Shown piece after piece: positions 1,436 through 13,375 of a DNA stretch of 64,000 bases. Numbering within the stretch: the first letter of the stretch is position 1; every line of letters begins with the position of its first letter. The notes beneath the pieces are model-generated. The model ran no database searches. It saw only the letters and a list, made by a program, of their open reading frames with translations, and was not told the origin of the DNA. The DNA is from Chloroflexota bacterium (GTDB lineage: Bacteria > Chloroflexota > Limnocylindria > Limnocylindrales > CSP1-4). Made by a program: the position numbers and the translations under genes. Location of the stretch: contig DAHXON010000002.1 of assembly GCA_027364875.1 (NCBI GenBank), forward strand, positions 25,192-89,191, given 5' to 3'.

Positions 1436-2929
1436 ATGCAGCTGCCTGGACTTGAGCGCGAACTGGTCGATGCCGCCGCGTACCAGCGGGCAGTGGGCCG
1501 GTTCCGAGAGACCGGAATAGTCATGCCGACGTTCGCGGAGCTGGCCGATCCGGAGCGCATCCCGGCTTCCACGGTCGCCTCGCTCGCGTCGGTGGACCCC
1601 GATTCCCCGGATCCGCGGAACCTGTTCCGGGTCCACTGGTTCAACGACCTCGCCAGAAGGGGCCGGGTCCGCATCCCGGAGTACGTGGTGCTCCCGCGGG
1701 AGCTCACAGGCGTCGACGCCCGGATAGTCGTGGTGCTGGGCGACCGGTTCCCGATGATCGCCGCGCACAAGGTCCTCGCCGCGTTCGGCTGCCTTGCCCC
1801 GCGGCTCGTCACCGGCCAGTTCGATCCCACGACGCAGCGCGCCGTGTGGCCCTCGACCGGGAACTACTGCCGCGGCGGCGTGGCGATCAGCCGGATCATG
1901 GGCTGCCGCGGAGTGGCAGTCCTGCCCGAGGGCATGAGCCGCGAGCGCTTCGACTGGCTGGAGCGTTGGGTCGTCGACCCGGGCGACATCATTCGCACGC
2001 CCGGCACCGAGAGCAACGTCAAGGAGATCTACGACAAGTGCGCCGAGCTGCAGCGCGACTCGGCCAACGTCATCCTCAACCAGTTCTCGGAGTTCGGGAA
2101 CCACCTGGTCCACTACCTGGTCACCGGGCGTGCCCTCGAGCGGGTCTTCGAAGCGGTGCGAGAGACGGAGCCGGGGCTGGCTCTGGCGGCGTTCACCTCC
2201 GCGACCGGCTCGGCGGGGACGATCGGCGCGGGCGATTACCTCAAGGAGCGACACGCGACCAAGATCGTGGCCGGCGAGGCACTCGAGTGCCCGACGATGC
2301 TCCGGAACGGCTTCGGCGAGCACAACATCCAGGGGATCGGCGACAAGCACATACCGCTCATCCACAACGTGATGAACACGGACCTCGTGGTGGATGTGTC
2401 CGACCGTGCCACCGACCACCTGCTCGTCCTGTTCAACACCGAGGCGGGCCTGCGCTTCCTGGCCACCGAGCGGCACGTCCCCGAGGCGGTCCTGGCCGAG
2501 TTGCCGGCCTTCGGCATCTCGTCGATCTGCAACGTTCTGCTGGCGGTCAAGGCGGCGAAGCGGCTGCAGCTGGGGCCCGACGACGTGGTCATCACCGTCG
2601 CCACCGACGGCGCCGCGATGTACCGGTCCGAGGTATCTCGGATCGTCGCCCGCGATTTCCCCGGCGAGTTTACCGCCACCTCGGCCGCCGAGACGTTCGG
2701 GCAGCACATGCTGGGCGCCGGCACGGATGACCTGCTCGAGCTGGGCCGCGAGGAGCGTGAGCGGATATTCAACCTGGGCTACTACACCTGGGTCGAGCAG
2801 CAGGGCGTCGATCTCGCGGCCTTCGAGGCACGTCGGAGCCAGGACTTCTGGGACGGCCTGCGCGTCCTGCCGGCGGCCTGGGACGAGCTGATCGGCGAGT
2901 TCAACGCTCGCGTGCGGGCGGCGTCGTGA
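1436..2929 (+). CDS. PLP-dependent enzyme, fold-type II (cysteine synthase / Trp-synthase-beta-like), long form
   Basis: ORF 1424..2929. A GGAG 7 nt upstream favours ATG 1436. [29 protein letters not shown] and [13 protein letters not shown] resemble fold-II PLP family loops. The stop overlaps the next start (GTGA 2926-2929). Confidence 0.75.
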
Positions 2930-4449
2930 AGGCCGAAACCCCGGCGGAGCCCGTGCTCGCGCGGGCCGAAGGCCGAGCCGCCTGGTTCGAGTGCTCGGGC
3001 TGCGGCCACCGACTCGCGCCCGGCGAGCCGGTACCGCTGCGTTGCCCCGCCTCCACCGAAGGCGACGACGTCGACCACGTGCTCGTCCGCATGCTCGACA
3101 CGGCCGCGCTCGCATTCCCGCGTGGTGACGAGCCGAGCCCGTTCGTGCGCCACCGGACCCTTTTCCATGCATGGCATGCGGCGCGCGGTCTCGGCTGGAG
3201 CGATGCCGACTACATCGCCCTGGTCGAACGGCTGGACGAGGCCGTGGCCGCCGTCGACGGGCACGGCTTCCGGGTCACGCCGTTCTTCCGCGCCGCAGAG
3301 CTGAGCGATCGCCTCGGCTTCTCGGGCGGGGGAGGGGTCTGGGTCAAGGACGAGACCGGAAACGTGTCGGGCTCACACAAGGCGCGCCACCTGATGGGGA
3401 CGCTGCTGGAGCTGGAAGTGGCCGAGGCCGCGCGCCGCGGCGCCGACGGAGGGGCGCCCGGCACCGGGGGTGTGGGCGGGCCCGGAGACGCGCCCGGCCC
3501 GGGAGGCGCGCCCGGCACCCCGCCGCCTTTCGCCGTGGCCAGCTGCGGCAACGCGGCGCTGGCCGCGGCGGTCGTGGCCCGAGCCGCCAACCGACCACTC
3601 GACGTCTTCATTCCCCCGGACGCGGACCCTGCCGTCGTGGCACGGCTGCGCGAACTCGGAGCCCGCCTCGAGGTCTGCGAGCGCAGGCCCGGGGTCGGCG
3701 GCGATCCCACCTACAACCGACTGCTCGCCGCAGTGGCGGAGGGCGCCCTGCCGTTCACCTGCCAGGGAAACCTGAACGGCTTCGCCGTCCAGGGAGGCGA
3801 GACGATGGGCTGGGAGATGGCCGCGGGGCTCGAGACCGGTGGGGCCCGGCTCGACCGGGTCTTCGTCCAGGTCGGCGGTGGCGCCCTCGCCGCCGCCGTG
3901 GGTGGCGGTCTCGCCGAGGCGCGGGCGCTGGGCGCGGCGGTGGGGCCCGGCCGCTTCCACGCGGTGCAGACACACGGTGCCCACCCGCTGGAACGCGCCT
4001 ACGAGCACGTGGCGGCGCGTGTTCGAGCCGGCGAAACGCCGGCCGCTGCCCTGGCCTATGCCGCGCGGCACCGGTCGGCTTTCATGTGGGCGTGGGAATC
4101 GGAGCCACAGAGCATCGCCCACGGGATCCTCGACGACGAGACCTACGACTGGCTGGCGGTGGTCCGGGCGATGCTCGAAACGGGCGGCTCGCCGGTCGTC
4201 GTGGACGAAGCGACTCTCGCCGAGGCCAACGACCTCGCCGTCTCGACCACCGGCATCGACGTCGATCACACTGGCTCGGCCGGCCTTGCCGGCCTGCTCG
4301 CGATGCAGCGGGACGGGGCCATCGATCCCGCCGAGACAGTCGCGGTGCTCTTCACCGGCGTGCGCCGCTCGGGCCACGCCGCCGGCGCAACCCCGTCCAC
4401 GGCCGCCGACGGCCCGTCATCAAGTCCGTCCAGGGAGGAGAGGTCATGA
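2926..4449 (+). CDS. PLP-dependent threonine-synthase-like enzyme (fold-type II) with Cys-rich N-terminus and a Gly/Pro-rich insert
   Basis: ORF 2926..4449. [16 protein letters not shown] (PLP-lysine region), [28 protein letters not shown]-terminal FECSGCGH...LRCP. Insert [30 protein letters not shown]. Confidence 0.75.
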
Positions 4450-5399
4450 GGAGCTTCATCGGTCGCGACATCCTCTCGCTCAAGGATTTCAGCCGCGACG
4501 AGTTCTTCCGGGTCTTCCAGGTCGCCGACGACCTGCGCCCGTTCGCCCGCGATCGCCGCAATACGGACCTGCTGAAGGAGAAGACGCTCCTGACCGCGTT
4601 CTACCAGCCCTCCACCCGCACGCGCCTGTCGACGGAAGCGGCGATGCACCGTCTCGGCGGGCACGTCCTGGGCTTCTCGGACTCGAAGATGACGCGGGCC
4701 GGCGACTTCTACCAGGAGTCGATCAAGGACACGTTCCACATGCTCGAGTACTACGCGGACGTGATCGCGATCCGCCACCACCAGCAGGGGGCGCCGCACG
4801 AGGCCGCGCGCTGGTCGTCCGTCCCGGTCATCAACTGCGGCGACGGCTGGGGCGAGCACCCCACCCAGGTCCTGACCGACCTCTACACGATCCTGCTCGA
4901 GAAGGGGACGCTCGACGGGCTGACGTTCGTCCTCGTCGGCGACATGCGGATGCGGACGATGCACTCGATGCTGTATTCGCTCTCGCAATTCGACTCGCGC
5001 GCGATTGTCGTCGGACCGCCGCAGATGTCGCTCCAGCCTGAGTTCAAGGCCGACCTGGACCTGATGAGCGTCGACTATCGCGAGGCCGGTGACGTTCGCG
5101 ACGTGATCGGCGAGGCGGATGTCATCTACATGGAGCCGGTCGTCCAGGCCGACTACACGCAGTCTCGCGTGGAGCGCGGCGCCGAGACCGGCAAGACCCC
5201 GCCGCAGTACCAGGTCACGCGCGAGCTGATCCGCGACAAGGGCAAGCGCAGCTCCATCGTGCTGCACTCGCTGCCGCGCATGGACGAGCTGACACCGGAC
5301 GTGGACGAGACGCGCCACCAGCGATACTGGGCCGAGGCTTTCAACGGCGTGGCCCTTCGCATGGCCCTGCTCTCGCTGGTTCTCGGCCGCGCCGAGTAG
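4446..5399 (+). CDS. aspartate-carbamoyltransferase-like catalytic chain (PyrB paralogue with altered second-substrate pocket)
   Basis: In-frame ATG at 4446 inside ORF 3171..5399, with an ATGA overlap on the upstream stop. [15 protein letters not shown]..., STRTR, HPTQ and HSLPR motifs. Aligns along its length to my recollection of E. coli PyrB, but MTRVQKER is replaced by MEPVVQAD. Confidence 0.85.
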   Translation: MRSFIGRDILSLKDFSRDEFFRVFQVADDLRPFARDRRNTDLLKEKTLLTAFYQPSTRTRLSTEAAMHRLGGHVLGFSDSKMTRAGDFYQESIKDTFHMLEYYADVIAIRHHQQGAPHEAARWSSVPVINCGDGWGEHPTQVLTDLYTILLEKGTLDGLTFVLVGDMRMRTMHSMLYSLSQFDSRAIVVGPPQMSLQPEFKADLDLMSVDYREAGDVRDVIGEADVIYMEPVVQADYTQSRVERGAETGKTPPQYQVTRELIRDKGKRSSIVLHSLPRMDELTPDVDETRHQRYWAEAFNGVALRMALLSLVLGRAE

Positions 5400-12654: not shown

Positions 12655-12739
12655 CTCCGTGCCGCGGCACCGGGTACTGAGTCGGGCCTGCCGGCGGCGT
12701 CGTCGCGCGGCTTAGGCGTCGTCGCGCCGCGGGCCGTCT

Positions 12740-13375
12740 TCAGGGTCGATGGTCGCGACCGATTCGGCCGGTCGTGGACGGTGCCTCGGCGGTGCCGCGG
12801 CCGCCGTTGTATATGAGGCCACCGCCTCTGGCGTAGTCGACCAGCACCGCCGCGGCCTCCTCACGGCAGATGCCCCGCGTCACCTGGATCCCGCGGGCCG
12901 CGAGCGCCTCGGGCCAGCCGTCCGGCTTGGCGCCCTCGTCGAAGCCGACCCCCTCGGCGTCGTCGCCCGTCGCCCCGCAGAGAATGCTCTTGACGCCACT
13001 CCAGGGAATGGCTCCCAGGCACATGGCACACGGTTCCGCGCTGGTGACCAGCTGCATCGTCGGCAGCCCCGGCGCCCCCAGGTCGTAGCTGCCAATCGCC
13101 TGCTGGGCTATGGCGATGGCAACTGTCTCGGCGTGGGCGAGAGAGCAGCCCAGCGGCACCACCAGGTTGACGCCGGGAGCCACCACCCGCCCACTGCCGT
13201 CCTCAAAGACAACGGCCCCGAACGGGCCGCCGCCGCGCGCGGCGTTCTCCCGGGCGAGCGAGATGGCCAGCCTCATCCGATCTTCGGGGATCCGGAGCGC
13301 GCCGGGAGACGCATCGATCAGGTCGGACACCCACTCGGGCACCGACACGACCAACCTGGGATACAGGTGGTGCAT
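12740..13375 (-). CDS. guaD: guanine deaminase-like CDA-fold nucleobase deaminase
   Basis: ORF 12740..13375. GGGPFGAVVF, HAETVAI, SAEPCAMCLGAIPWSG and GFDEG match my recollection of B. subtilis GuaD (GGPFGAV, HAE, EPCPMCLGAI, GFDD). Confidence 0.8.
   Translation of the reverse strand: MHHLYPRLVVSVPEWVSDLIDASPGALRIPEDRMRLAISLARENAARGGGPFGAVVFEDGSGRVVAPGVNLVVPLGCSLAHAETVAIAIAQQAIGSYDLGAPGLPTMQLVTSAEPCAMCLGAIPWSGVKSILCGATGDDAEGVGFDEGAKPDGWPEALAARGIQVTRGICREEAAAVLVDYARGGGLIYNGGRGTAEAPSTTGRIGRDHRP

Follow-up and report, generated by a model that had tools for sequence, protein, structure and literature searches.

A divergent gene cluster in a Limnocylindrales bacterium as a probable variant of the reductive urate pathway, with two carbamoyltransferases and a pair of unusual PLP enzymes

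The ygeW...xdhD gene cluster of Escherichia coli and its clostridial counterparts encode the reductive urate, or 2,8-dioxopurine, pathway, which was established biochemically in 2025 (PMC12507026; bioRxiv 10.1101/2025.04.24.650524). According to these two studies, urate is converted to 2,8-dioxopurine by XdhD or by a 2,8-dioxopurine dehydrogenase (DOPDH), the ring is reduced by YgfK and opened by SsnA, and HyuA opens a hydantoin to give 2,3-diureidopropionate. One ureido group leaves through YgeW as carbamoyl phosphate, from which YqeA makes ATP, and this ATP formation was shown. The other ureido group is hydrolysed by YgeY, and YgeX cleaves 2,3-diaminopropionate to pyruvate. Here we describe a related locus in a 64,000-nucleotide stretch of DNA from a Limnocylindrales bacterium of the phylum Chloroflexota (contig DAHXON010000002.1, positions 25,192 to 89,191), referred to below, at its full length, as the window. 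The cluster is a conserved, previously undiscussed variant of the known pathway, carried by environmental lineages and not by gut anaerobes. Homology and gene replacement patterns make it probable that the window covers the larger of the two arms of a divergent cluster for reductive (2,8-dioxopurine) catabolism of purines and urate, and that both ureido groups are phosphorolysed.

A preliminary description of this DNA, made from its sequence, had proposed an ATP-yielding purine route akin to the E. coli ygeW/ygeX/ygeY/hyuA/yqeA/xdhD genes, and had raised the question of whether the orthologous cluster was already assigned to a described pathway. That assignment was made in 2025, to the 2,8-dioxopurine pathway, and the route itself is not new; the variant features stand. 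Our literature search found no description of a variant with two carbamoyltransferases or with the pair of pyridoxal phosphate (PLP) enzymes reported here.

The proposed gene set and order proved correct. All nine open reading frames (ORFs) are present at the coordinates below, as judged from composition and from Pfam and NCBIfam matches, and their coding-type composition (GC3 0.85-0.93 against GC2 0.41-0.58) indicates that the genes are real. The upstream divergent gene, assigned in the preliminary description to the xanthine dehydrogenase (XDH) family, is real as well; its ATG at 1086 is preceded by a good Shine-Dalgarno sequence and the gene continues past the window edge. The features are as follows:

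1..1086, minus strand: divergent molybdenum hydroxylase with fused 2Fe-2S and molybdopterin parts, DOPDH ('Se-dependent XDH', TIGR03311) type; 5' part of 361 codons, running off the left window edge
1087..1435, no strand: divergent intergenic (promoter) region, with a 20-bp perfect palindrome and a degenerate copy
1436..2929, plus strand: g1, 497-aa fold-type-II PLP enzyme with a core like CysK and cystathionine beta-synthase (CBS) and helical N- and C-terminal extensions; PALP 36.8 bits
2926..4449, plus strand: g2, 507-aa fold-type-II PLP enzyme of the threonine synthase/serine racemase/dehydratase type; PALP 113 bits
4446..5399, plus strand: g3, carbamoyltransferase derived from aspartate carbamoyltransferase (ATCase); OTCace_N and OTCace, TIGR00670 260 bits
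5418..6395, plus strand: g4, compact YgeW/AOTCase-like carbamoyltransferase; OTCace_N and OTCace, under all NCBIfam cutoffs
6463..7413 (alternative TTG start 6445), plus strand: g5, carbamate kinase (YqeA equivalent); NF009007 385 bits, cutoff 266
7410..9686, plus strand: g6, molybdopterin subunit of xanthine dehydrogenase type; Pfam Ald_Xan_dh_C, MoCoBD_1 and MoCoBD_2
9683..11131, plus strand: g7, 2Fe-2S and FAD subunit, partner of g6; Fer2, Fer2_2, FAD_binding_5 and CO_deh_flav_C
11128..12654, plus strand: g8, D-hydantoinase/dihydropyrimidinase (HyuA equivalent); TIGR02033 523 bits, cutoff 393
12740..13375, minus strand: g9, predicted guanine deaminase of cytidine deaminase (CDA) fold, NE0047/GuaD type, convergent with the operon; Pfam dCMP_cyt_deam_1

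The likeness to the E. coli route holds up at the level of single proteins. Identity is 48% between g5 and YqeA, 40% over 502 amino acids between g8 and HyuA, and 33% over 358 amino acids between g4 and YgeW; the divergent gene is of the DOPDH type, and SsnA-like and YgfK-like genes come next in the flank. The XDH-type pair g6 and g7 scores under the cutoffs of its models (g6, pucD, 484 bits; g7, xanthine_xdhA, 326 bits against 467), and g6 carries the motifs GGAFGGKEE, KRHP, FRGFG and GLGELP. The convergent deaminase had been called GuaD-like, and its matches bear this out: g9 is a close homologue of PDB 2G84 (E 9e-54 over 188 residues) and also matches the Bacillus subtilis guanine deaminase 1WKQ (E 2e-17). 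NE0047 is a characterised guanine deaminase, and by sequence membership g9 is a predicted CDA-fold guanine deaminase.

The left edge of the window cuts through the cluster. Exact-sequence look-ups placed the same genes on three contigs from metagenome-assembled genomes (MAGs) that reach about 8.5 kb further left. Leftward, these carry the full-length molybdenum enzyme, an SsnA-like amidohydrolase, a 1159-aa YgfK-like iron-sulfur (FeS) flavoprotein and a 382-aa protein without a family match. On locus L084 (related loci are designated by L numbers) the molybdenum enzyme is 884 aa long and, at 957 bits, clears the TIGR03311 cutoff of 830. The YgfK-like protein, encoded two genes left of the window edge, reaches 826 bits to TIGR03315, marginally under the cutoff of 835, and its N-terminal part is 45% identical to E. 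coli YgfK. The amidohydrolase is 32% identical to SsnA over 389 aa, and SsnA models are its best matches (249 bits against a cutoff of 444). The earlier statement that SsnA and YgfK equivalents are missing is thus correct for the window, where tblastn with YgeY, YgeX, SsnA, YgfK, YqeB, YqeC and MocA gave no match, and incorrect for the locus, which has both just beyond the left edge. YgeY also had no tblastn match in L001. To the right, the genes between 13.5 and 38 kb of the window are unrelated to the cluster (GGDEF, CMD, phosphoesterase, transposase, CoA-transferases and sugar-acid genes), and the cluster therefore begins beyond the window, at the YgfK-like gene, and ends with g9.

Together with its flank, the locus resembles the E. 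coli 2,8-dioxopurine cluster (ygeW-ygeX-ygeY-hyuA-yqeA ... ygfK-ssnA-ygfM-xdhD) in having an XDH-family enzyme predicted to 6-dehydroxylate urate, a reductase of the YgfK type, a putative SsnA-family amidohydrolase, a hydantoinase of the HyuA type, a YgeW-like carbamoyltransferase, a carbamate kinase, a separate XDH and guanine deaminase nearby, and, as predicted here, substrate-level ATP formation through carbamoyl phosphate. It differs in that YgeY, an M20 hydrolase, is missing and the ATCase-derived g3 is found instead, and in that the YgeX-family diaminopropionate ammonia-lyase is missing and g1 and g2 are found instead. Moreover, the molybdenum enzyme belongs to the clostridial DOPDH type (TIGR03311) and not to the XdhD type (TIGR03313), with no adjoining YgfM; YqeB, YqeC and MocA are not encoded nearby; the guanine deaminase adopts the CDA fold and not the amidohydrolase fold; and the host is a high-GC environmental bacterium.

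The urate clusters of Clostridium sporogenes and Clostridioides difficile provide a second comparison. They too have a fused FeS and molybdopterin enzyme of the DOPDH type, and the C. sporogenes protein, XdhAC, was shown to be a 2,8-dioxopurine dehydrogenase (bioRxiv 10.1101/2025.04.24.650524). As in the present locus, the pathway is modular and single steps differ from one lineage to another, YgfK being exchanged with UacX and YgeW with UacY. In C. difficile, however, the swap leads to hydrolysis, with no ATP at that step, whereas here it would lead to phosphorolysis and potentially to two ATP; the PLP step differs as well. The arginine deiminase pathway offers a parallel in energy conservation, in that a transcarbamylase working in reverse phosphorolyses a ureido group and carbamate kinase makes ATP. 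Here the substrates would be ureido derivatives of diaminopropionate and not citrulline, and two transcarbamylases would feed one kinase.

The absence of YgeY and the presence of two carbamoyltransferases and two unusual PLP enzymes, all remarked on in the preliminary description, are real and conserved in related loci. We collected 80 genome loci anchored on g1, from at least eight phylum-level groups and with 60-71% identity, and 80 metagenome loci anchored on g3, of which the 37 of at least 8 kb were used in the counts. The proteins of the cluster and of E. coli were mapped by tblastn onto the resulting 117 loci. No locus has both g3 and YgeY (g3 only, 54; YgeY only, 8), and none has both g4 and true YgeW (g4 only, 36; YgeW only, 7). 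Furthermore, g4 never occurs without g3, and YgeW is always accompanied by YgeY. This strictly complementary distribution defines two alternative modules, YgeW with YgeY and g4 with g3. In 36 of the 37 g3-anchored loci, L134 being the exception, g3 lies within one cluster type, which comprises g1-g2, g4, carbamate kinase, DOPDH and SsnA, together with YgfK or, in its place, an F420-type luciferase-like oxidoreductase. The latter variant was already noted in PMC12507026.

From these replacement patterns, g4 in the place of YgeW and g3 in the place of YgeY, we infer that g4 performs the step of YgeW and g3 that of YgeY, the latter by phosphorolysis, so that both ureido groups would be phosphorolysed, with up to two ATP per urate.

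The active site of g3 is consistent with a substrate other than aspartate. At 28% identity, g3 and g4 are old paralogues. The best PDB matches of g3 are ATCases, its public annotation is aspartate carbamoyltransferase, and its 260 bits to TIGR00670 exceed the cutoff of 237, while NF002032 gives 227 bits, under the cutoff of 263. Like the catalytic chain PyrB, g3 has the ATCase fold and the motifs STRTR, HPTQ and H(S/P)LPR. When 96 g3-family proteins were aligned with E. coli PyrB, Ser52, Thr53, Arg54, Thr55, Arg105, His134, Gln137 and Arg167 proved invariant. In contrast, the 80s loop reads TRAGDFY in 96 of 96 members and contains neither Ser80 nor any lysine equivalent to Lys84. Family members have Q, K, A or V at the position of Arg229, which lacks conservation in both plausible alignments, and an eight-residue insertion (EPVVQxDY) precedes the 240s loop. 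Neither pyrI nor other pyr genes accompany g3. Since the carbamoyl phosphate site and Arg167 are kept and Lys84 and Arg229 are lost, g3 is predicted to bind carbamoyl phosphate and an alpha-carboxylate, and not the side chain of aspartate. An ATCase score above cutoff is here a pitfall for annotation. As an ATCase-derived enzyme with an intact alpha-carboxylate ligand, g3 might best fit an N-alpha-carbamoyl compound, that is, 3-amino-2-ureidopropanoate (the Liu et al. intermediate); the argument is weak, and the proposed D-stereochemistry complicates it.

For g4, the motifs point towards YgeW. It shares NxQCD, SWAY..SY.KP.SVPQ, KSWG and HPLPAD with YgeW, without YgeW's two insertions, and has KSWG and HPLP in place of the DxxxSMG and HCLP motifs of ornithine carbamoyltransferase (OTCase). 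Its scores stay under cutoff both for YgeW models (186 and 174 bits against 453 and 500) and for OTCase models (263 against 306 and 255 against 281). The g4 clade is distinct from true YgeW, whose representatives in other loci are 45-67% identical to the E. coli protein.

The two PLP enzymes show no detectable sequence similarity to each other. Neither g1 nor g2 has a BLASTP match to YgeX at 1e-3, and no diaminopropionate ammonia-lyase model appears among their NCBIfam matches. The g1 protein shares the fold of CysK and CysM, has about 200 residues more, and scores 72 bits with cysK models against a cutoff of 351; its Schiff-base lysine lies in an invariant H111-K112 pair. An AlphaFold2 model of g1 (predicted local distance difference test score, pLDDT, 87) has O-acetylserine sulfhydrylases, cystathionine beta-synthase and beta-cyanoalanine synthase as its closest PDB folds, all of them enzymes whose reactions replace or eliminate a substituent on the beta-carbon of alanine. 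Both 2,3-diaminopropionate (3-aminoalanine) and albizziin (3-ureidoalanine) are beta-substituted alanines. For g2, which has an N-terminal cysteine-rich, zinc-ribbon-like segment and a Gly/Pro-rich insert, every NCBIfam score is under cutoff (threonine synthase model, 59 bits against 303), and the Schiff-base lysine lies in an invariant S150-H151-K152. Its model (pLDDT 83) is closest to CapA2 (9k3c), threonine synthases, serine racemases and threonine deaminases, and the likeness to threonine synthase appears to be at the level of the fold only. The low-complexity insert corresponds to window positions 3439-3534 and has pLDDT below 50. Fold searches with the models thus gave a subgroup for each protein, CysK/CBS for g1 and ThrC/serine racemase for g2, and identified no substrate. 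Each family comprises thousands of 90%-identity clusters in public data without a functional name; that of g1 has at least 8000, named only 'cysteine synthase' or 'PLP-dependent enzyme'.

Across related loci, g2 directly follows g1 in 62 of the 80 genome loci. Long contigs with the cluster include CAWGWF010000001.1 and CAWKHN010000005.1, whereas on the closed chromosomes OZ257157.1 and OZ220692.1 only g1-g2 is present. Among the 62 loci with DOPDH or SsnA, 55 have g1 and 52 have g2, and one has YgeX. Five loci (L017, L020, L031, L046 and L058) carry SsnA, YgeW, YgeY and g1-g2 without YgeX, with DOPDH in four of them, YgfK in four and carbamate kinase in two; L022 and L009 follow the same pattern, g1-g2 and no YgeX, with fewer pathway genes in range. 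The pair is nevertheless not a simple one-for-one swap for YgeX, since g1-g2 occurs without purine genes, g1 occurs without g2, and L023 has the pair together with YgeX.

Taken together, homology to characterised enzymes of E. coli and Clostridium would assign the early steps of the route as follows. Guanine would be deaminated to xanthine by g9, xanthine oxidised to urate by the g6/g7 dehydrogenase, and urate 6-dehydroxylated to 2,8-dioxopurine by the divergent DOPDH-type enzyme. The YgfK-like flavo-FeS protein and the SsnA-like amidohydrolase, both encoded left of the window, would reduce and open the ring, respectively, and g8 would open a hydantoin to 2,3-diureidopropionate. The remaining steps are suggested by gene replacement. 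The first ureido group would be phosphorolysed by the YgeW-like g4 and the second by the ATCase-derived g3, and g5 would convert both carbamoyl phosphates to ATP, up to two per urate. At the place of YgeX, and in keeping with the fold models, g1 and g2 would most likely convert 2,3-diaminopropionate, or its mono-ureido precursor, to pyruvate and ammonia. One option for the division of labour is that g2 racemises or pre-processes a D-intermediate, which the CysK-like g1 then beta-eliminates.

Several observations weigh against this proposal. Phosphorolysis of a ureido group is thermodynamically unfavourable, and weak turnover of YgeW was noted in PMC12507026. The HMM score of g3, above an ATCase equivalog cutoff, would by itself leave room for an anabolic role. 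The gene model of the SsnA-like protein is inconsistent between the three assemblies, which are of the same organism: L001 (2973-3983, minus strand) has an in-frame TGA (HVHVCE*T) and a run of N, L084 (5973-6995, minus strand) has a separate 340-aa gene, and in L085 (5980-9651, minus strand) the gene is fused to the molybdenum enzyme in a 1223-aa ORF. About half of the g1-anchored loci have g1-g2 without purine genes within 10 kb. Conversely, the purine clusters of L135, L137 and L144 contain g1 without g2, and a search of these three loci for a substitute found none, while L023 holds g1, g2 and YgeX together. A homologue of YgeY or YgeX could also be encoded elsewhere in the genome. Finally, YqeB and YqeC are not found near the cluster, although gut versions of the pathway need these selenium-cofactor genes (bioRxiv 10.1101/2025.04.24.650524); at the threshold used, the window and the 117 related loci gave no match to either, apart from one weak YqeB-like match in L017.

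A different account of the second carbamoyltransferase keeps the pathway and has only one ureido group phosphorolysed. Under it, g3 would act on 5-ureido-dihydrouracil, ureidomethylhydantoin or a side product, and the other group would leave through an unlinked amidase or as urea, by g1-catalysed beta-elimination from albizziin. The fold of g1, shared with enzymes that eliminate or replace the beta-substituent of alanine, suits the latter route, albizziin being 3-ureidoalanine, and no other partner in the cluster is as constant as g1. The intermediate is also uncertain, because the two 2025 studies disagree on which ureido group YgeW removes (PMC12507026; bioRxiv 10.1101/2025.04.24.650524). 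We nonetheless consider this account unlikely. The perfect complementarity of g3 and YgeY (0 loci with both, 54 and 8 with one) suggests that g3 takes the step of YgeY, and its retained Arg167, the alpha-carboxylate ligand of ATCase, suits an N-carbamoyl-alpha-amino acid and not a cyclic ureide. In addition, the cluster has no urease or urea carboxylase, and g1-g2 is also present beside a full YgeW and YgeY set.

Breakdown of pyrimidines or of another cyclic ureide is considerably less probable. In such a route the YgfK-like protein would be a reductase of the dihydropyrimidine dehydrogenase type, g8 a dihydropyrimidinase, and the carbamoyltransferases would phosphorolyse beta-ureidopropionate and beta-ureidoisobutyrate. 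This would agree with the score of g8 above the cutoff of a dihydropyrimidinase equivalog model, with the dihydropyrimidine dehydrogenase FeS domain (Fer4_20) of the YgfK-like protein and with that protein's score just under the YgfK cutoff (826 against 835). We rejected this assignment on account of its purine-specific company: two XDH-family enzymes, one of which passes the DOPDH-type model, an SsnA-family homologue and a guanine deaminase. These are also the families by which the characterised urate cluster is defined. To our knowledge, fold-type-II PLP enzymes are not used in beta-alanine catabolism, which also counts against a pyrimidine route.

That ordinary anabolic genes (PyrB, ArgF, CysK, ThrC and a carbamate-kinase-type source of carbamoyl phosphate) merely lie beside purine genes, as the source annotations 'aspartate carbamoyltransferase', 'ornithine carbamoyltransferase', 'cysteine synthase' and 'threonine synthase' and the TIGR00670 score of g3 would suggest, is very improbable and was rejected, given the sub-cutoff scores of g1, g2 and g4 with every equivalog model, the altered active sites of g3 (no Lys84 or Arg229) and g4 (no SMG motif of OTCase), the tight packing or overlap of the genes in one operon, and a linkage to DOPDH, SsnA and the reductase that is kept across many phyla.

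With phosphorolysis of both ureido groups as the preferred reading, replacement of a hydrolase by a second phosphorylase would alter the ATP yield of the pathway, to two per purine as against one. The pair g3 and g4 would also be natural tools for establishing the order of ureido cleavage, on which the founding papers disagree. Because g3 passes the PyrB cutoff and the names ArgF, CysK and ThrC are routinely given to g4, g1 and g2, respectively, pathway reconstructions from these MAGs will miscall this catabolic pathway as biosynthesis. The large families of g1 and g2 now have a testable context.

The taxonomic reach of the pathway is extended as well. For g1 and g2, the closest named relatives come from MAGs labelled Chloroflexota/Limnocylindrales and Actinomycetes, and SsnA was already noted in Chloroflexota and Actinomycetota (PMC12507026). 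Beyond that published range, carriers of the cluster include MAGs labelled Thermoanaerobaculia, Vicinamibacteria, Gemmatimonadetes, Myxococcales, Eisenbacteria and Proteobacteria. We tentatively envisage a widespread urate pathway outside the gut, in soil, groundwater and freshwater, in which both ureido groups give carbamoyl phosphate and the ATP yield is doubled. A two-protein PLP module, the 497-aa CysK-like protein and the zinc-ribbon ThrC-like protein, would there take the place of diaminopropionate ammonia-lyase; as the module also occurs alone, it might act more widely in 3-substituted alanine metabolism. Such a pathway may work without the YqeB/YqeC selenium system.

With regard to translational coupling, the five 4-nt overlaps noted previously (GTGA at 2926, ATGA at 4446, GTGA at 7410, ATGA at 9683 and GTGA at 11128) are all present in the sequence. 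The one at 7410 is not secure, as the start of g6 is uncertain: 7410, 7443 (the public gene call, 747 aa) and 7464 are all candidates. Good Shine-Dalgarno sequences precede the starts at 1436, 4446, 5418, 6463 and 9683, and for g5 the ATG at 6463, which has one, is more likely than the TTG at 6445. Within g8, positions 12034-12105 encode an acidic low-complexity insert rich in Gly, Ser, Asp and Glu.

The intergenic region between the DOPDH-type gene and g1 contains a 20-bp perfect palindrome, CACGTCCAGCGCTGGACGTG, at 1189-1208, with a degenerate copy 35 bp downstream at 1243-1258. The palindrome may be an operator; the cluster contains no regulator gene. A scan for promoter and terminator consensus sequences performed no better than on shuffled sequence and gave no sigma-70 consensus in 1087..1435, and Rfam searches found no riboswitch or other RNA in the cluster (E up to 1) or, at gathering thresholds, in the whole window.

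On the left flank, the reading frame at the C-terminus of the molybdenum enzyme differs between L001 and L084. Left of the YgfK-like gene, positions 1-2360 of L083/L084 encode the 382-aa protein, which has a hydrophobic N-terminus and no Pfam or NCBIfam match, and a 513-aa multi-4Fe-4S protein of the Fer4_5 type that could be an electron-transfer partner of the molybdenum enzyme.

Two further settings of the PLP genes were observed. In Ilumatobacteraceae and other Acidimicrobiia (L047-L081), g1-g2 lies among housekeeping genes (murI, rph, rdgB, clpP, a yifB-like gene, dprA, xerC, a sigma factor gene, rpsB and tsf) with no purine genes within 10 kb, and the Ilumatobacteraceae context gave no functional clue. 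In alphaproteobacterial MAGs (L062, L066, L069 and L072, at about 10000-14300), g1 occurs without g2 and is followed by two CoA-transferase subunits and an F420-type luciferase-like oxidoreductase. In L066 and L072, and also in L067, g1 is preceded by a gene for a fused FO-synthase (CofG/H), and genes for an ABC amino-acid transporter are near in L066, L069 and L072.

On the right flank, an rve-family transposase is encoded at 19787-20986, and MAG contig DAIDTW010000022.1, which shares the locus, ends at that element, at about window position 19805. GC content is 0.70-0.72 within the purine cluster and drops to 0.63-0.68 beyond 18 kb. Given the contig end at the transposase and this drop in GC, the right-hand portion of the window may belong to another genomic island or have been joined on in the assembly. 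Further along, and unrelated to the cluster, 23854-28172 and 29256-35245 encode two family-III CoA-transferases flanking a two-subunit CoA_trans transferase, with an SDR protein, a DHDPS-like aldolase, a dehydratase of the mandelate racemase family and an ABC sugar transporter on the other strand.

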